43,663 bases of DNA. It comes from Vectrevirus T205P5. The position numbers and the translations under genes were made by a program. The notes beneath the pieces are model-generated. The model made no database searches. It saw only the letters and a program-made list of their open reading frames with translations, and was not told the DNA's origin. The DNA lies in sequence record OZ035792.1, one strand, 5' to 3'. Position 1 is the stretch's first letter. Each line of letters starts with the position of its first letter. Positions 3,893-43,663 of this stretch are shown here, piece after piece.

Positions 3893-3918
3893 CGATTTAC
3901 TGGACACTATAGAAGAGG
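3893..3918 (+). promoter_or_regulatory. SP6-type phage RNAP promoter upstream of the tailspike genes
   Basis: CGATTTACTGGACACTATAGAAGAGG, about 80 nt upstream of the tailspike 1 start. Confidence 0.8.
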
Positions 3919-3996
3919 TAAGATAGCGCCGTTCTTTTGAGCGGCCTATTACTAGCCAATCTTCATAGGGAGGGTTGGAAAGTAATAGGAGATAGC

Positions 3997-5895
3997 ATGG
4001 CTAAATTAACCAAACCTAATACTGAAGGAATCTTGCATAAAGGACAATCTTTGTATGAGTACCTTGATGCGAGAGTTTTAACATCAAAGCCGTTTGGTGC
4101 TGTAGGTGACGCCACTACTGATGATACGGAGGTTATAGCTGCTTCATTAAACTCTCAGAAAGCTGTCACAATCTCAGACGGTGTATTCTCTAGCTCTGGT
4201 ATTAATAGTAATTACTGTAACTTAGACGGTAGAGGTAGTGGGGTGCTAAGTCACCGTTCCAGTACAGGTAACTACTTAGTATTTAACAATCCACGTACAG
4301 GTCGCTTAAGTAATATTACGGTAGAAAGTAATAAGGCGACTGATACAACTCAGGGACAGCAGGTATCTCTTGCCGGTGGAAGTGATGTTACTGTAAGTGA
4401 CGTTAACTTCTCAAACGTTAAAGGTACTGGTTTCAGTTTAATCGCATACCCTAATGATGCGCCACCTGATGGACTTATGATTAAAGGCATTCGAGGTAGC
4501 TATTCCGGCTATGCTACTAATAAGGCAGCCGGATGCGTACTTGCTGACTCCTCAGTTAACTCCCTCATAGATAACGTCATTGCTAAGAACTACCCTCAGT
4601 TCGGAGCAGTAGAGTTGAAAGGTACAGCCAGTTACAACATAGTCAGTAATGTTATAGGGGCAGATTGCCAGCATGTAACTTACAACGGCACCGAAGGGCC
4701 AATAGCTCCTTCTAATAACCTTATCAAGGGGGTGATGGCTAATAACCCTAAGTATGCAGCGGTTGTTGCAGGCAAAGGAAGTACGAACTTAATCTCAGAC
4801 GTGCTTGTAGATTACTCAACTTCTGATGCTAGGCAGGCTCATGGTGTTACCGTAGAAGGGTCTGATAACGTCATAAATAATGTGCTTATGTCAGGATGTG
4901 ATGGTACTAACTCTTTAGGACAAGGGCAGACCGCTACAATTGCACGCTTTATAGGTACAGCTAATAACAACTATGCGTCTGTATTTCCTAGCTACAGTGC
5001 TACAGGTGTTATTACTTTCGAATCCGGCTCTACCCGTAACTTCGTAGAGGTAAAGCACCCTGGCAGGAGAAACGACCTTCTCAGTTCTGCTAGTACTATT
5101 GACGGTGCAGCTACTATTGACGGCACTAATAATAGTAACGTAGTACACGCACCTGCATTAGGGCAGTACATAGGTAGTATGTCAGGTAGGTTCGAATGGC
5201 GGATTAAGTCCATGTCACTCCCTTCAGGCGTTCTTACTTCTGCTGATAAGTACAGAATGCTTGGGGATGGTGCTGTATCATTAGCTGTAGGTGGGGGTAC
5301 TTCTTCTCAAGTTCGCCTATTTACTTCTGATGGTACTTCTCGGACAGTGGCCCTCACCAACGGTAACGTGCGTCTTTCTACCAGTAGCACAGGCTATTTG
5401 CAGTTAGGTGCTGATGCAATGACCCCAGATAGTACTGGTACATACGCATTAGGTTCCGCCAGTCGAGCATGGTCTGGCGGTTTTACTCAAGCAGCATTCA
5501 CTGTTACCTCAGATGCTAGGTGTAAAACAGAACCTCTTACTATCTCAGATGCCTTACTGGATGCTTGGTCTGAAGTTGACTTTGTGCAGTTTCAGTATTT
5601 GGATCGTGTTGAGGAGAAGGGTGCAGACTCAGCTAGATGGCACTTTGGCATCATCGCTCAGCGAGCTAAGGAGGCTTTCGAACGTCACGGTATAGATGCA
5701 CATCGCTATGGCTTCTTGTGCTTCGACAGTTGGGATGATGTATACGAGGAAGATGCCAATGGCTCTCGTAAACTGATTACACCAGCAGGTTCCCGCTACG
5801 GTATTCGTTACGAGGAAGTGCTGATATTAGAGGCTGCGTTGATGCGGAGGACTATTAAGCGTATGCAGGAAGCACTAGCTTCCCTGCCTAAGTAA
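3997..5895 (+). CDS. Tailspike 1: right-handed beta-helix polysaccharide lyase-like depolymerase with C-terminal self-cleaving intramolecular chaperone domain (K5-lyase/KflA-like)
   Basis: AGGAGA RBS before the internal ATG (MAKLTKPNTEG); pectate-lyase-type N-terminal motif FGAVGDATTDDTEVIAAS; C-terminus matches the peptidase S74 chaperone domain of endosialidase-type tailspikes. KflA assignment is from recall, not a search. Confidence 0.85.
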   Translation: MAKLTKPNTEGILHKGQSLYEYLDARVLTSKPFGAVGDATTDDTEVIAASLNSQKAVTISDGVFSSSGINSNYCNLDGRGSGVLSHRSSTGNYLVFNNPRTGRLSNITVESNKATDTTQGQQVSLAGGSDVTVSDVNFSNVKGTGFSLIAYPNDAPPDGLMIKGIRGSYSGYATNKAAGCVLADSSVNSLIDNVIAKNYPQFGAVELKGTASYNIVSNVIGADCQHVTYNGTEGPIAPSNNLIKGVMANNPKYAAVVAGKGSTNLISDVLVDYSTSDARQAHGVTVEGSDNVINNVLMSGCDGTNSLGQGQTATIARFIGTANNNYASVFPSYSATGVITFESGSTRNFVEVKHPGRRNDLLSSASTIDGAATIDGTNNSNVVHAPALGQYIGSMSGRFEWRIKSMSLPSGVLTSADKYRMLGDGAVSLAVGGGTSSQVRLFTSDGTSRTVALTNGNVRLSTSSTGYLQLGADAMTPDSTGTYALGSASRAWSGGFTQAAFTVTSDARCKTEPLTISDALLDAWSEVDFVQFQYLDRVEEKGADSARWHFGIIAQRAKEAFERHGIDAHRYGFLCFDSWDDVYEEDANGSRKLITPAGSRYGIRYEEVLILEAALMRRTIKRMQEALASLPK

Positions 5896-5980: not shown

Positions 5981-7639
5981 ATGCTACAACGATTAAGTTC
6001 TTCACTAGTGAAGCACAAGAGCAAGCTAATAGGCGCTACCTATAGGCTGCTTGGTGATAAGCTTTTAGAGCTAAATAGTGTATCAGATTTTGGTGCAATA
6101 CCAAATCTTGAAACAGATAGTACTAATTCCATTCAAGCTGCAATTGATGCGACCCCGTCTGGTGGTACTCTAGGCTTCTATGGTGGGCCTTATAGATTTG
6201 GTACTGTTACAGTGGATAAACCAATTACACTAGTTGGAGATGCAGATTTGCAGTTTGAGTGCATTCGTATCAAGACAAGTAAGTTTCGTAGTTTCTTGAC
6301 AGGAACACTAACTGCTGCGAGATACGACAGTGCATGTCGTGCATTTCAAATCTTAGCCTATGAAGATGGGCAAGACTATGAGGACATCAAAGTACATGGT
6401 GCACGTTTCGAGGGTTTCTTCTATAACACAGACTTCCGAGGTCGTTCTTACGATGCGTCAGAAAGTGATCCTGCTAACCGAGTAGTTCGGGACACCTCTA
6501 TTATGGGCTGTACTTCAGTTCAACCTAAAGATGGTAAAGACAGAGGGCACTTTCAACACGTAGGTGTTACCAATGCCAAGTGCATAGGTAACTCAACGTA
6601 TGGTGGTAAGAATGCTACTTCTTATAACTTCATTAATGGTAATGGTTCTTTGGTGGTTATGGGTAACTATGACCATGACAATGAATATGGTTCCTTAGAG
6701 ATTGAGAATAACAAGATAAGCTACGGTGTTGTTACTGGTAATATCTTCCATAAACAGCTATGGATAGATGATACTAGCAACATTAACGTAACAGGTAACA
6801 CCTGCACAGATAGGATTTACATTACTGCACAATCTAACAACTCTGAGAACGTATCAGTAGTGGGAAACAATGTACCACGCATCTACGTCAGTAAGTTTGG
6901 TCAAAGCCCAACAGGGCGTCACCGTAACTTGACTATACGTGGTAATCATGTCACGGGCAAGGATGTTCCTAATTGTATATTCTTAGATGATTCTGTTGAT
7001 TCCGCTTCTATTGAAGGTAATGATTGTTATGGTGTGTCTGGTGTTAAAGGCATAGCCATTACTCGTCATGCAGATGCTAACCATACAGTGCGTCATAATA
7101 ACTTACATGGCACTAACTTACTCTTTAGTGGTTCGGGCGGAAAAGTTTATAGTTATGACAACTTTGATGTTGGAGTTGATGAATCCCCTGTGGCAGACAG
7201 AACTGACGCAGTGCACATTGACAACCTTCTTCGTGTAAATGATGAGTACCTTGATTTGCCAGGAAAGTACCTATACAAATCTAAGTATACAAGAGACATT
7301 ACACAAGGTGGCTCAACCACTATTGAGTTACCTGTAACCACAAGTGGTTCTTTGGCTTTTCGTGGTATTAGTTTATGGGTTCTTATCCGTAACACTTCTA
7401 CGGGGAACTTGTCTTCTTATCGTGTAGATGGAAGACATGCAGTAAGTGGTTCTTCTGTGACTGTTAGCTTTGGAGAGAAGTATGGGGTATTAGGAGTGAA
7501 TACTGGTGATGTTACTGTTAGTAATGATGCCTCTACGACTAATCTTATTCGTATCAAGGTAAGCAATGAGCATGTAAGTCAGACAATGCAGGTTACAGTT
7601 GTACCAGAGGTAACAAGCAGATTAGGGACTGAAGAGTAA
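5981..7639 (+). CDS. Tailspike 2: beta-helix depolymerase of unknown specificity
   Basis: AAGGAGG RBS; N-terminal motif SDFGAIPN...TDSTNSIQAAIDA; Asn/Gly/Thr/Val-rich repeats typical of parallel beta-helix tailspikes; no C-terminal chaperone domain and no sialidase Asp-boxes. Confidence 0.8.
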   Translation: MLQRLSSSLVKHKSKLIGATYRLLGDKLLELNSVSDFGAIPNLETDSTNSIQAAIDATPSGGTLGFYGGPYRFGTVTVDKPITLVGDADLQFECIRIKTSKFRSFLTGTLTAARYDSACRAFQILAYEDGQDYEDIKVHGARFEGFFYNTDFRGRSYDASESDPANRVVRDTSIMGCTSVQPKDGKDRGHFQHVGVTNAKCIGNSTYGGKNATSYNFINGNGSLVVMGNYDHDNEYGSLEIENNKISYGVVTGNIFHKQLWIDDTSNINVTGNTCTDRIYITAQSNNSENVSVVGNNVPRIYVSKFGQSPTGRHRNLTIRGNHVTGKDVPNCIFLDDSVDSASIEGNDCYGVSGVKGIAITRHADANHTVRHNNLHGTNLLFSGSGGKVYSYDNFDVGVDESPVADRTDAVHIDNLLRVNDEYLDLPGKYLYKSKYTRDITQGGSTTIELPVTTSGSLAFRGISLWVLIRNTSTGNLSSYRVDGRHAVSGSSVTVSFGEKYGVLGVNTGDVTVSNDASTTNLIRIKVSNEHVSQTMQVTVVPEVTSRLGTEE

Positions 7640-7788
7640 TGCCATTAATCAAATCAGTTAAGCAAAGTGCTGTACGCCAGAACACAGAAGAACTCATCAA
7701 GTCAGGACGTGACCCTAAGCAGGCTTATGCCATTGCCAAGGATGTACAACGTCGTGCCTTGAAGAAACCTTCTGCATCTTCTGCGTAA
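7639..7788 (+). CDS. Small basic protein (49 aa), hypothetical
   Basis: ATG overlaps the tailspike 2 stop; weak RBS; not in the ORF track because it is under 60 aa. Confidence 0.3.
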   Translation: MPLIKSVKQSAVRQNTEELIKSGRDPKQAYAIAKDVQRRALKKPSASSA

Positions 7789-7858
7789 GCAGGTTAATAT
7801 CTTAGTATAAACAAGGGCAGACTTAGGTTTGTCCTTAGTGTATTCCAAAGGAGGTAAC

Positions 7859-7987
7859 ATGCTGAAAGATGGTTGGGTTTCATATGACCCTACAGACCCT
7901 AAGAATTGGCTACAGGTTATCGCTATAGCTTGTGCAGGTAGCCTATTGGCTGCCCTGATGTATTCATTATGGATGTACACAAAGTAA
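7859..7987 (+). CDS. Small membrane protein (42 aa), hypothetical
   Basis: Strong AAGGAGG RBS 6 nt upstream; hydrophobic helix LQVIAIACAGSLLAALMYSLWMY. Confidence 0.4.
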   Translation: MLKDGWVSYDPTDPKNWLQVIAIACAGSLLAALMYSLWMYTK

Positions 7988-8154
7988 CCAAAGTCAAAAT
8001 TTTGATGTAGGCGTGTGTCAGCTCTCTCGCCCTCGCCCTCGCCGGGTTGCCCCCCATAGGGTGGCCTGAGGGAATCCGTCTTCGACGGGCAGGGCTGATG
8101 TACTCCTTCGCTAGTACAAGGGAGGCGGAGGGAGCGCCTAGGGAGGCCTAGGAA

Positions 8155-8445
8155 TGGCTTAGTGGTGGACAAGGTGATTACCTTAGTGAAGCCTCTTAGT
8201 GCATTCCTGAGGCCATTCAGGGCGTTTATGAGGTATTGACAGGGTGGATGGGCGTGGGCTATCTGTTCGTTTCGTTCACTCCGCTTGCGCTCCGTTCACT
8301 CGCTCACGTGTACCTTAGGTTATTACTTGATGGATAGCTTAGGTTAACCTTAGTGGAATGCCTTAGTTAAAGACTTAGTGCTTATCTTAGTAACAGCTTA
8401 GTAGTGTACCTTAGTTGGTCTTAGTGAATAGCCTTAGTGATTGCA
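8155..8445. repeat. Array of CTTAGT(G) short direct repeats in the genome-terminus region
   Basis: At least 13 copies of (C)CTTAG(T/G) at about 10-14 bp spacing (densest 8313-8440), in non-coding sequence between the right-end and early genes; resembles the CCTAAAG repeat array near the T7 left end. Confidence 0.7.
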
Positions 8446-8635
8446 CATGCAAGCATGTAAGATGCCAATAGGTCGCGGTCGGTAGACCGCTAAAGAAAGA
8501 GAATAGTAATAAGATGCAGTAGGAGGAACACCAGAAACCTAGCCAACCTAGCCTATCCTAGCTCTGTATCTATTGCTTTTCCTTAGTCTAACATGTGAGA
8601 CAACCTAGATTTATCTTAGTGATGATATCTTAGTG

Positions 8636-8664
8636 TTGACAAGGCCATCTCAATATAATACTAT
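8636..8664 (+). promoter_or_regulatory. Candidate host sigma70 early promoter
   Basis: TTGACA, 17-nt spacer, TACTAT; about 140 nt upstream of the first early gene. Confidence 0.3.
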
Positions 8665-8807
8665 TCATCACGTAGGCAGCACTGAGGTGCTTAGTAGCCA
8701 GCTAGTAAGGCATACGAAGAGACTAGCGCTTACATTGCTCTTTAACAATTTGCTTAGTGTAACCTATGTATGCCGTGGTTAATTACTTATTGAATGAGGG
8801 ATTAACT

Positions 8808-8987
8808 ATGACATTAAACAACCGTGAACTATCCGTTCTCTTCACTCTGTTGTGCTACATGATTCGTAACAACGAATTGCTTACAGATGACGAGTTGGCA
8901 CTGTATCACCGCTTTCTTAACGAAGGTTGGACCGATACAGTTAATCAATACCGTAACATGATAGATGAGTTGAGGGAGGGTAAATAA
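8808..8987 (+). CDS. Early hypothetical protein
   Basis: GAGGGA RBS before the internal ATG of ORF 8766-8987; first gene after the terminal region. Confidence 0.4.
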   Translation: MTLNNRELSVLFTLLCYMIRNNELLTDDELALYHRFLNEGWTDTVNQYRNMIDELREGK

Positions 8988-9211
8988 TGTATCAACATGA
9001 GGTATTCTTTGAATCAGCTAGCGAAGCTATTCGCTTCCGTGATGATATGATGCAAGCTGGTGTAGGCGTTGATGTGTATCACTATTTGATAGATTACGAC
9101 ACTGAATATCACCGAGTTACCTTAGTATCTGAGTATGACAACCAAGTCATTACTGAGTATCTAGGCAGTGAAGATTACGATTACGATGAAGTAATCACGA
9201 CAAATCTCTAA
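8987..9211 (+). CDS. Early acidic protein (74 aa), hypothetical
   Basis: GGAGGG RBS; start overlaps the upstream stop; strongly acidic, ending SEDYDYDEVITTNL. Confidence 0.45.
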   Translation: MYQHEVFFESASEAIRFRDDMMQAGVGVDVYHYLIDYDTEYHRVTLVSEYDNQVITEYLGSEDYDYDEVITTNL

Positions 9212-9219
9212 ATTAACTG

Positions 9220-9248
9220 TTGACAGCCACGGCATACAAGGTTACATT
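9220..9248 (+). promoter_or_regulatory. Candidate host sigma70 early promoter
   Basis: TTGACA, 17-nt spacer, TACATT, in an early intergenic region. Confidence 0.3.
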
Positions 9249-9340
9249 AAGCATCAAGACGGCGACGTCTTTAAACATCCTGCTCTTTAACAATACGGTT
9301 TGTGTCTTGATAGGCTAACTAACTAACTAAGGTAATTATC

Positions 9341-9451
9341 ATGAAAGGTTTAATTTGTGTAGAACGTATGGTCAATGGTAAACTTGAAATATTACCACTG
9401 GAAAACCAATCTAGCTTCAAAGAGTGGTATGGCTGTTTCTCACTGATTTAA
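9341..9451 (+). CDS. Small early ORF (36 aa), hypothetical
   Basis: TAAGGT RBS; fills an early intergenic gap; no homology recognised. Confidence 0.25.
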   Translation: MKGLICVERMVNGKLEILPLENQSSFKEWYGCFSLI

Positions 9452-9602
9452 GGTAAAGGCTGGCACTAGTCAGCCTATCAAGGCGCAAACCAAGCTCTTT
9501 AACAATTTGGATGGTAGCTTCTTAGTCTGGATAGGTTAAACCTAGGAGATTCTCTTGAGTCTCCTATAATGTAACCTAACTAACTAAATGAGGATTAATA
9601 AC

Positions 9603-11286: not shown

Positions 11287-13914
11287 ATGCAAGACTTACA
11301 CGCTATTCAACTTCAACTTGAAGAAGAAATGTTTAACGGCGGTATCCGTCGCTTTGAAGCGGACCAACAGCGCCAGATTGCATCCGGTAATGAATCAGAC
11401 ACGGCATGGAATCGCCGCTTATTGTCCGAGTTAATCGCGCCAATGGCTGAAGGTATTCAGGCATACAAGGAAGAGTATGAAGGTAAAAGAGGCCGTGCAC
11501 CGCGTGCATTAGCTTTCATTAACTGCGTAGAAAACGAAGTGGCAGCATATATCACGATGAAAATCGTTATGGATATGCTGAACACGGATGTAACCTTGCA
11601 GGCTATAGCCATGAATGTAGCTGACCGCATTGAGGACCAAGTACGTTTTAGCAAGCTGGAAGGTCACGCCGCCAAATACTTTGAAAAAGTTAAGAAGTCA
11701 CTTAAGGCAAGTAAGACTAAATCATATCGCCATGCGCACAACGTAGCGGTAGTGGCTGAGAAGTCAGTAGCTGACCGTGACGCTGATTTCTCCCGCTGGG
11801 AGGCATGGCCTAAAGACACCTTGCTGCAAATTGGGATGACCTTGCTTGAAATCTTAGAGAATAGCGTATTCTTCAACGGGCAACCTGTCTTCCTCCGCAC
11901 CTTGCGCACTAATGGCGGCAAACATGGTGTTTACTACCTACAGACTAGTGAACACGTAGGTGAGTGGATAACTGCATTTAAAGAACATGTAGCGCAACTT
12001 AGTCCAGCCTATGCACCTTGCGTTATTCCTCCGCGTCCGTGGGTATCACCCTTTAACGGTGGGTTTCATACTGAGAAAGTAGCAAGCCGTATTCGTCTGG
12101 TAAAAGGCAATCGTGAGCACGTCCGCAAGCTGACCAAAAAGCAAATGCCAGCGGTTTACAAGGCTGTTAACGCTTTGCAGGCGACTAAGTGGCAGGTTAA
12201 TAAAGAGGTTTTACAGGTTGTGGAGGACGTTATACGTCTAGACCTCGGCTATGGTGTACCTTCCTTTAAACCACTCATCGACCGTGAGAACAAGCCAGCT
12301 AATCCGGTGCCGTTAGAGTTCCAGCACCTGCGAGGCCGTGAACTGAAAGAAATGCTTACGCCGGAACAATGGCAAGCCTTTATCAACTGGAAAGGTGAAT
12401 GTACTAAGCTGTACACCGCTGAAACTAAGCGCGGAAGCAAATCGGCGGCAACCGTTCGCATGGTTGGTCAGGCCCGTAAATATAGCCAGTTCGACGCAAT
12501 CTACTTCGTGTATGCACTGGACAGCCGCAGCCGTGTATACGCGCAATCTAGCACACTCTCACCGCAATCAAATGACTTGGGCAAGGCCTTGCTCCGTTTT
12601 ACCGAAGGGCAGCGTCTTGATAGCGCTGAGGCGCTTAAGTGGTTTTTGGTGAACGGGGCTAATAACTGGGGTTGGGATAAGAAAACTTTTGACGTGCGCA
12701 CCGCTAACGTGCTGGATAGTGAATTTCAAGACATGTGCCGCGACATTGCAGCGGATCCGCTGACCTTCACTCAATGGGTAAATGCCGATTCCCCTTATGG
12801 CTTCCTTGCATGGTGCTTTGAATATGCGCGTTATCTGGATGCACTGGATGAAGGCACGCAAGACCAATTCATGACGCACCTACCCGTCCATCAAGACGGC
12901 AGTTGCTCTGGTATTCAGCACTATAGCGCGATGTTACGCGATGCAGTAGGTGCGAAAGCAGTAAACCTTAAGCCTTCTGACTCTCCTCAAGATATTTATG
13001 GTGCCGTTGCGCAGGTAGTAATTCAGAAGAATTATGCATACATGAATGCAGAGGATGCGGAAACCTTCACTTCTGGCAGCGTGACTTTAACAGGTGCGGA
13101 GCTGCGTAGTATGGCTAGTGCGTGGGATATGATAGGAATCACTCGCGGCCTGACCAAAAAGCCCGTAATGACACTACCTTATGGCAGCACACGTCTAACC
13201 TGCCGTGAGTCAGTGATTGATTATATCGTTGATTTAGAAGAAAAAGAGGCCCAACGGGCTATTGCGGAAGGGCGTACCGCCAATCCTGTACACCCTTTTG
13301 ATAATGACCGTAAGGACAGCCTGACACCTAGCGCAGCTTATAACTATATGACAGCTTTAATCTGGCCTTCTATTTCGGAAGTGGTTAAAGCTCCTATAGT
13401 GGCAATGAAAATGATTCGTCAGCTTGCACGTTTCGCAGCTAAAAGGAATGAAGGCTTAGAGTACACCTTGCCTACTGGCTTCATCTTGCAACAAAAGATA
13501 ATGGCGACAGATATGCTCCGCGTATCTACTTGCTTGATGGGAGAAATCAAGATGAGTCTACAGATTGAAACGGACGTAGTGGATGAAACGGCTATGATGG
13601 GCGCTGCTGCCCCTAACTTTGTGCACGGTCATGATGCCAGTCACCTTATCTTAACGGTCTGCGACCTTGTTGATAAAGGGATTACATCTATCGCAGTAAT
13701 TCATGATTCTTTTGGCACTCATGCAGGTCGCACCGCAGACCTACGTGATAGTCTAAGGGCAGAAATGGTGAAGATGTATCAAGGCCGTAACGCTCTGCAA
13801 AGCCTGTTAGATGAGCATGAAGAACGCTGGTTAGTAGACACCGGAATCCAAGTGCCAGAGCAAGGAGAGTTTGACCTTAACGAAATCTTAGTATCTGACT
13901 ATTGCTTCGCATAA
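11287..13914 (+). CDS. Single-subunit DNA-dependent RNA polymerase (T7 gene 1 family)
   Basis: 875 aa; matches T7 RNAP motifs as recalled (PWxxxx[25 protein letters not shown]-terminal DYCFA). Confidence 0.97.
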
Positions 13915-43514: not shown

Positions 43515-43663
43515 ATGATTAACTCCGAACTGGTAGATAGTGGTGTGAAGCTTGCGCCACCTGCACTCGTATCAGGTGGGTACTTCCTCGGTATCAGTTG
43601 GGATAATTGGGTGTTAATAGCAACATTCATTTATACCGTGTTGCAAATTGGGGACTGGTTTTA
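43515..43663 (+). CDS. Class II holin (T7 gp17.5-like), 3'-truncated at the window end
   Basis: AGGAGG RBS; LVSGGYFLGISWDNWVLIATFIYTVLQIG resembles T7 gp17.5; the frame continues into positions 1-46 if the window is circularly joined. Confidence 0.6.
   Translation, partial: MINSELVDSGVKLAPPALVSGGYFLGISWDNWVLIATFIYTVLQIGDWF

Follow-up and report, generated by a model that had tools for sequence, protein, structure and literature searches.

The genome ends of K1-5, K1E and SP6, and those of T7 and T3, are the closest described counterparts of the locus analysed here. In T7 a natural copy of the class II pause/termination signal sits at the concatemer junction; the signal is defined by HATCTGTT, read on the non-template strand, with a T-rich run behind it, and the literature on it speaks of 'phage RNA polymerases' generally (bioRxiv 10.1101/2021.01.11.426313; PMC11347151). 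At the T7 junction the signal lacks a T run, and it has been called a pauser/terminator. Terminal repeats of T7-like phages are deleted or collapsed by assemblers, and are sometimes left mid-contig (PMC10438801).

We analysed a stretch of 43,663 nucleotides from Vectrevirus T205P5 (OZ035792.1), the whole of which is called the window below. K1-5 (AY370674, Vectrevirus, Molineuxvirinae) could be aligned over all 43,663 bp of it, at 89–98% identity, in circular permutation: base 1 of the window corresponds to K1-5 35368, and base 43663 to K1-5 35367. The small-terminase gene begins just after the window start (ORF 30–329; PF11123, the gp18 family; phrog_891), and is followed by a T7-type large terminase (ORF 329–2227; PF22530 and PHROG terminase families). 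A single-subunit RNA polymerase is encoded at 11287–13914 (PF00940, PF14700). The window is thus a complete genome, a circularised assembly rotated to the conventional small-terminase start, so that the genome ends would fall mid-sequence.

An earlier note on this DNA, made from its sequence alone, had proposed that the physical ends and a direct terminal repeat (DTR) lie in a non-coding region of about 770 bp (7990–8760), by analogy with the left end of T7. Homology bore out this placement, with the repeats of five relatives found at the orthologous place, and the analogy agreed feature by feature with the T7 record. The region is most probably the concatemer junction and left-end control region of a T7-supergroup phage (Autographiviridae, Molineuxvirinae, Vectrevirus) with its DTR copies collapsed into one, and we put the probability of this reading at roughly 0.9. 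On alignment the element is an approximately 95% identical orthologue of the published ends of K1-5, K1E and SP6; T7, SP6 and K1-5 had already established this architecture. The features are listed in Table 1.

Table 1. Features of the junction and left-end region, in window coordinates
Feature	Position	Strand	Remarks
Words left of the DTR (CTTAGT 7801, CTTAGG 7822, CTTAGT 7834)	7801–7839	+	Between gp48-like and gp49-like ORFs
Unique sequence left of the cut, AAAGTCAAAATTTTGATGTAGGCGTGTGTCAGC	7988–8022	+	Identity to relatives 0.93
Predicted left physical terminus	8023–8027	+	Inside (TC)3 run; record starts of relatives
(CTCGCC)x3, then C6ATAGGG	8026–8061	+	Identity to relatives 0.88
DTR, one collapsed copy	8027–8261	+	Exact 234-bp K1-5 DTR aligns from both K1-5 ends
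Words inside the DTR (CTTAGT 8158, 8182, 8195)	8158–8200	+	T7/T3 likewise have 4–5 own words inside the repeat
TTGACA near the DTR right edge	8236–8241	+	Invariant in 10/10 aligned sequences
Class II pause/termination signal, T-ATCTGTT and T-rich run, CGTTTCGTT	8260–8276	+	DTR right end at A8261; identity 0.95
Variable spacer with duplicated CGTTCACTC	8271–8313		Least conserved in the region; identity 0.16–0.66 per 10 nt
Main array, ten CTTAG(T/G) words	8314–8439	+	Single orientation, about 12 nt apart
Two-hairpin module	8441–8535	+	Identity 0.91, reaching 1.00 at 8470–8479
Three words before P1 (8582, 8615, 8629)	8582–8635	+	Last adjoins the P1 -35 hexamer
P1, sigma-70-like early promoter, TTGACA-17 nt-TACTAT	8636–8664	+	Promoter scan, 10/12 matches
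boxA-like GCTCTTTAACAA in the gene 1 leader	8737–8748	+	Kept in K1-5 and SP6
First early gene, K1-5 gene 1 homologue	8808–8987	+	phrog_9275, E = 2e-40; K1-5 annotation

The sequence at this locus is 94.6% identical to bases 1–1500 of K1-5 and 96.6% identical to its right end. Features in common with K1-5, K1E and SP6 are the boundaries of the repeat, the C-run/ATAGGG motif, the offsets of the CTTAGT array, the module with its hairpins, P1 and the boxA-like 12-mer. The window differs from K1-5 in a 40-nt segment just right of the repeat, where the window has the CGTTCACTC duplication, and from all three in holding a single repeat copy, the assembly being circularised. Overall sequence similarity to T7 and T3 is absent, but the elements follow in the same order: a start with TCTC (common to SP6, K1E, T7 and T3), a C-run/ATAGG motif 24–29 nt in, ATCTGTT on the right boundary, a one-orientation array after the repeat with 12–13 nt spacing and few copies inside and to the left, strong sigma-70 promoters 500–750 nt in, and an identical GCTCTTTAACAA ahead of the first gene. 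The main array is the counterpart of the left-end short repeats of T7 (SRL), and the words left of the DTR are that of its right-end short repeats (SRR), T7 and T3 having 4–5 of their own words left of the repeat. Unlike the junction of T7, to which phiOR and phiOL adjoin, that of the window has no adjoining phage promoter, and T7 has no two-hairpin module.

The terminal repeat and its boundaries

The window holds one copy of the DTR, as the earlier note had expected of a collapsed repeat. Its length is 235 bp if defined as in K1-5 and up to 239 bp if defined as in SP6; a single extra C in a C-run of the window accounts for the difference from the 234 bp of K1-5. Exact repeats are present at the orthologous locus in coliphage K1-5 (234 bp), Salmonella phage SP6 (174 bp), K1E (288 bp), Lelliottia phage phD2B (262 bp) and Klebsiella phage K1-ULIP33 (163 bp), the SP6 and K1-5 lengths being read off the sequence records themselves. 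The comparison with the ends of SP6 and K1-5 that had been suggested as a check placed both repeats at the orthologous position. In addition, the record of AAPEc6 ends at window 8261 and that of EC120 starts at 8262. The proposed extent has to be reduced: the ends do lie inside the 770-bp region, but only some 235 bp of it are repeat, and its last 320 bp or so are early promoter and leader. Once the second repeat copy is counted, the virion DNA is predicted to be about 43,898 bp long. The exact cut positions in this isolate are likewise predicted from the records of its relatives. Conservation peaked at both cut sites (0.88–0.96), compared with 0.44–0.57 in the flanking small genes.

At the left end, the records of relatives differ in their starts by up to 4 nt. 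When mapped to the window, that of SP6 begins at 8023, those of K1E and EEc4 at 8025, those of phD2B, ULIP33, VEc3 and mutPK1A2 at 8026, and that of K1-5 at 8027. The unique sequence immediately to the left (7988–8022) was detectable in Proteus, Klebsiella and Lelliottia phages in which the remaining sequence was not recognisable, and probably belongs to the signal for cleavage and recognition. The span crossing the left cut, 7988–8067, was the most widely recognisable part in other genera, with identities of 0.88–0.93 among relatives. When viral contigs were scanned with the AT-rich 16-mer from the left side of the cut, most matches were non-specific, and only 8 of 120 stretches were true junctions.

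The GC-rich island at 8010–8160 described earlier, with its tandem motif, was confirmed: it has 65.6% G+C against 45.2% genome-wide, and the DTR as a whole has 59.6%. The tandem motif is (CTCGCC)x3 at 8026–8043, and the motif CCCCCCATAGGG, also reported before, is present at 8050–8061. A C-run followed by (A/G)TAGG starts 24–29 nt from the left end in the window, K1-5, K1E, SP6, ULIP33, phD2B, Era103, T7, gh-1 and phiKMV, and T3 has the variant C8ATAGCCCC. The distance of the C-run/ATAGG motif from the left end is thus constant across three subfamilies.

The right boundary reads GGGCTA/TCTGTT in K1-5, SP6 and K1E (the slash marks the boundary), with the variants GGCGGTA/TCTGTT in phD2B and GGGCTA/TCTATT in ULIP33; identity among relatives is 0.90–0.96. 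In the window genome, TATCTGTT at 8260–8267 is the sole HATCTGTT on the plus strand. The opposite strand has four copies; chance alone would give about three per strand. The plus strand of K1-5 likewise has a single copy, at the boundary. ATCTGTT is found at the repeat boundary in T7, T3, SP6, K1-5, K1E and phD2B, in T7 and T3 in the form CCCT/ATCTGTT. ULIP33 (ATCTATT) and Era103 (ATCTATC) depart from it and phiKMV is without such a motif, so a class II signal at the boundary is not universal. Downstream of the heptamer, the tract in CGTTTCGTT has 6 T in 9 nt and is interrupted; a downstream T-rich tract is needed for release and not for the pause. From these features we infer that the polymerase of this phage may pause at 8260–8267; a literature search returned no direct report of an SP6-type polymerase pausing at this site. 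For the right end itself, it should be noted that run-off sequencing of ends can add a non-templated A.

Two other elements overlap or lie close to this boundary. A hairpin terminator matched by the scan at 8242–8268 was rejected: it has only 3 G-C pairs, G-T being allowed in the stem, and it coincides with the class II signal. The TTGACA near the right edge of the DTR resembles a -35 hexamer, and its distance to TATCTG shifts by 2–4 nt in two relatives.

SP6-type promoter cores occur at 12 sites on the plus strand of the window. The core at 3903 is the last before the junction, and no plus-strand terminator-like site was found from there to 8260, so that late transcripts can reach the pause site in a concatemer. 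The SP6-type promoter consensus had no match in the non-coding region (the nearest cores are at 3903 and 10074), and an equivalent of phiOL is therefore absent. In T7 the pause is strengthened by the gp3.5 lysozyme. No gp3.5 homologue was detected here, a tblastn search against the window giving only noise (E ≥ 1.1), and a remote homologue or another partner is possible.

The CTTAGT words and the two-hairpin module

CTTAGT occurs 53 times in the whole window, compared with 29.3 ± 4.7 in shuffles. Sixteen copies fall in 7990–8760, all on the plus strand, where about 0.26 per strand would be expected in 771 nt (Poisson P ~1e-23); the 32 copies beyond 7800–8760 are near chance expectation. Together with CTTAGG variants at 8314 and 8338, the words in 7990–8760 number 18. 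The earlier count of 'at least 13' was therefore right about there being many copies but too low. Three words lie left of the DTR, three inside it, ten in the main array and five more between there and gene 1. The array is real, but most of it lies outside, to the right of the repeat, and is not the repeat itself. It also lies outside any conserved gene. In the core array (8338–8433) successive words are 10–13 nt apart, with a mean of 11.9 ± 1.05 nt, and the corresponding spacing is 12.9 nt in T7 and 11.8 nt in phD2B. The regularity that had been noticed is thus present, with a period of about 12 nt rather than the 10.5 nt of one helical turn. Almost no words are found here on the reverse strand.

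The words were compared across 17 distinct relatives, comprising Vectrevirus, Zindervirus, one Klebsiella phage and Proteus phage PM85. Identity was 93% in word columns and 52–57% in spacer columns (P ~1e-12), which indicates that selection acts on the word itself. Among these relatives the copies keep their orientation and their offsets from a downstream anchor. Copy number right of the repeat ranges between relatives from 7 to 15. The three words left of the repeat are the same in K1-5 and SP6.

More distant phages carry other words at the same place: CCTAAAG in T7 and T3 (against CTTAGT(G) in the window), CCATAGG in gh-1, CTTATG in Era103 and CATGATG in phD2B, which has none of its own words left of the repeat. 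The array word was lineage-specific in every group examined. Counting CTTAGT, Autographiviridae have seen at least five changes of word, in the course of which its position, its orientation and a register of about 12 nt were retained. T7 and K1-5 share the host E. coli and differ in the word, which argues for a reader of the words that is encoded by the phage rather than a host factor.

At the packaging site of lambda, the R sites of cosB form a recognition array for the small terminase. Like them, the words are several short same-sense sites beside a cleavage site, an arrangement that suits cooperative oligomer binding; they differ in being putative sites only, in being shorter and more numerous, and in lying mostly on one side of the junction. 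Tentatively, and at somewhat less than even odds, we take the words to be putative binding sites for a phage-encoded maturation or packaging protein, marking the left-end side of the junction. A literature search turned up no experiment giving the array a function, and searches for CCTAAAG and CTTAGTG returned primer sequences and unrelated papers only.

The array is bordered by two segments of very different conservation. In the spacer before it, the duplicated CGTTCACTC that had been pointed out earlier is present, at 8273–8281 and 8293–8301. As it is sited in the least conserved segment, it is probably not a functional element. Immediately after the array, the two-hairpin module consists of HP1 (8445–8458), HP2 (8475–8490), two copies of TAAGATGC (at 8458 and 8510) and a purine-rich tract between. 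In HP1, four of the six pairs show compensatory changes, and 95% of cells are paired, compared with 72% in shuffles and at most 40% in slid controls. The stem of HP2 has been swapped for different complementary sequences in PM85 and phD2B. An Rfam scan of 7500–9500 at E ≤ 1 gave a single chance snoRNA match, and the module is therefore not a described RNA family. Two simpler identities were considered and rejected. As a promoter, the module fails in that no sigma-70-like site was found in the array or module and the two TAAGAT hexamers have no -35 by eye; as an intrinsic terminator, HP2 lacks a following T run on either strand. It is possible, though less likely than not, that the one-orientation array and the pair of covarying hairpins after it form one cis-acting module, which outconserves the neighbouring genes and would be read by a putative phage-encoded protein.

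The early promoter and other readings of the words

No convincing ORF had been reported for the region, and this held. The four largest ORFs overlapping it (33–156 aa) had no PHROG match, while the flanking gp48-like and gp1-like genes did, and each of the five ORFs of at least 30 aa is interrupted by stops or frameshifts in most, if not all, of the nine aligned relatives. Judged by its reading frames, the region is non-coding, and it ends where gene 1 starts, at 8808. The distance of P1 from the left end is about 610 nt, comparable to that of A1–A3 in T7, which lie at 498–750; there is one early promoter before gene 1 here, with P2 following gene 2, in contrast to the three in the T7 leader. 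The boxA-like 12-mer GCTCTTTAACAA is identical in T7 (at 822–833, upstream of gene 0.3), and a second copy is found at 9282–9293, after P2. Its position downstream of a host promoter and in a leader fits a boxA of the rrn/T7 type, with a putative role in antitermination.

The words around P1 suggest another function. They could be operators for early transcription, at which a bound phage protein shuts off or tunes P1 and left-end transcription, and would then have no part in packaging. One word directly adjoins the promoter, and CTTAGTGTTGACA is invariant in the aligned relatives except for one with TTTAGTGTTGACA; further words flank P1 on both sides (8582, 8615, 8690 and 8753), the two downstream ones being at 8690 and 8753. 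By reading the sequences, we found that the CATGATG word of phD2B overlaps a TTGCAT-17-TACATT site, and that CTTAAAG in T7 overlaps the -35 and spacer of A1. The copies are, moreover, strongly skewed to the left-end side. These points make the operator function a serious rival, but the main array lies 200–320 nt upstream of P1, words are also found inside and left of the repeat, remote from any early promoter, and no regulator is known that would act at them. We consider operators in place of packaging sites unlikely, at about one chance in five, although the two roles could hold together.

In T7, phiOL acts as a secondary origin. The array and the hairpin module could similarly be a replication or priming element, made up of iteron-like sites or a left-end origin: after short direct repeats in one orientation come hairpins that are conserved and covary, together with a purine/A-rich tract, and T7 has phiOL at the equivalent position. 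T7 origins depend on a phage promoter, however, and here none lies within 1.4 kb; the words are also far shorter than typical iterons, and no initiator protein is known for such an element. An origin is thus improbable, and more so than operators. Slippage can generate short tandem-like units, and the variation in copy number right of the repeat between relatives would suit neutral duplication products without function, but the greater conservation of words than spacers, and the retention of orientation and register across genera and across lineages with other words, make this origin of the repeats very improbable. Least probable of all is that the physical ends lie elsewhere or that packaging is headful, the region being merely intergenic and regulatory: the window by itself, with one copy and no ends, would permit this, but five relatives have exact repeats at this locus and none maps its termini elsewhere, the terminase is of the T7 type, and several independent records start or end at 8025–8027 or 8261/8262.

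A possible route to the genome ends

The packaging reading of the locus can be set out by analogy with T7 and T3, starting from what is observed: where the repeat lies and that it occurs once, the conservation of the signals at its boundaries, the purifying selection that acts on the words, and the genes for polymerase and terminase. Replication would yield head-to-tail concatemers with one repeat per junction. Late transcription by the phage RNA polymerase would run rightward across the tail genes, enter the repeat and pause at T-ATCTGTT (8260–8267), and polymerase paused at the right edge of the repeat may aid recruitment of the T7-type terminase (30–329 and 329–2227). Two cuts by the terminase would follow, one on the right boundary (8260/8261) and one at the left site (8023–8027), where the cut is flanked by the conserved 7988–8022 sequence and the (CTCGCC)3/C6ATAGGG motif. 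Duplication of the repeat during processing would leave a copy at both virion ends. The CTTAGT words may be bound by a phage maturation or packaging protein, thereby marking the left-end side of the junction. At infection this end would enter the cell first, and host RNA polymerase would start at P1 (8636).

For annotators, the genome should be opened and oriented at 8023–8027 (left) and 8260/8261 (right), and a second repeat copy of about 235 bp added, which brings it to about 43.9 kb. Small ORFs are called here by some pipelines; they should stay unannotated. For the biology of these phages the finding is correct but ordinary, with nothing new in kind. The pause heptamer, the C-run/ATAGG motif, the words and the covarying hairpins nevertheless show which bases to mutate for dissecting end formation of the T7 type. 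The specificity of DNA packaging that distinguishes T3 from T7 is reported to reside in sequences no further than 5% from the termini (PMC3276506). If the words set the specificity of a phage for packaging its own DNA, the role of the T7 short repeats would be directly testable by word swapping.

The hairpin module and its surroundings

The two-hairpin module to the right of the word array is more conserved than the adjacent genes, and the stems of both hairpins, HP1 and HP2, show covariation between genera. Within the module, TAAGATGC is found at 8458 and again at 8510. Comparison of the module with Rfam families, promoter patterns and terminator patterns yielded no match.

Features of the window
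Feature	Position	Remark
Perfect SP6-type promoter core GACACTATAGAAG	129-141	inside small-terminase gene
Perfect SP6-type promoter core GACACTATAGAAG	2234-2246	just past large-terminase gene
Two-hairpin module	8441-8535
HP1	8445-8458
HP2	8475-8490
P1, sigma-70-like promoter	8636-8664
boxA-like GCTCTTTAACAA	8737-8748	~73 nt past P1 -10 hexamer
P2, sigma-70-like promoter	9220-9248
boxA-like GCTCTTTAACAA	9282-9293	~34 nt past P2 -10 hexamer

Several other short motifs were noted in this part of the window. CCTAGC occurs three times in 8538-8562 at a spacing of 9-10 nt, CCTAG appears a fourth time near 8604, and CCTAGG occurs twice within the terminal repeat, at 8137 and 8147. The sequence TATCTATTGCTTT at 8567-8579, which most relatives conserve at an identical offset, consists of a copy of the class II pause signal of phage RNA polymerases with one mismatch, together with a T run. 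In T7 the pause at the junction is strengthened by a partner of the polymerase, the lysozyme gp3.5, whereas no homologue of gp3.5 was detectable across the whole window.

The 8 nt directly left of the terminal repeat cut were compared between window positions 8015-8026 and loci L007, L010, L012, L015, L018 and L099. Among these close relatives the segment takes two forms, CAGCTCTC or G(G/A)GGTGTC, while its flanks stay conserved.

Words and early promoters

The word CTTAGTG immediately adjoins the -35 hexamer of the first early promoter, P1, and the sequence spanning both, CTTAGTGTTGACA (8629-8641), is invariant in nearly all relatives aligned. In phD2B and T7, likewise, the lineage's own word overlaps the first early promoter. 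At the T7 right end, a variant of the T7 word left of the repeat (CCTAAGG) is the reverse complement of the variant word CCTTAGG at 8313-8319 in the window; a relationship between the words of the two phages, in opposite orientation, is possible. Divergent from P1 and directly behind it, on the minus strand, is a leftward sigma-70-like site, TTGTCA-18-TAAGAT (8642-8613), which recalls the annotated leftward A0 promoter of T7 and T3.

Both P1 and P2 are followed by the boxA-like GCTCTTTAACAA, which is identical to T7 822-833. Its presence downstream of both promoters suggests that host antitermination factors may act on the early transcripts of this phage.

Gene content

In the records of several relatives, 3-8 small ORFs are annotated across the equivalent non-coding region, and in phD2B a 'hypothetical protein' (164-394) straddles the terminal repeat's right edge. 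These small ORFs are probably over-annotation.

The second tailspike gene (5981-7639) encodes an unrelated 552-aa tail protein (phrog_20231) in place of the K1 endosialidase found in K1-5, while a K5-lyase-like gene is retained at about 3937-5895. This replacement predicts a capsule host range different from that of K1-5.
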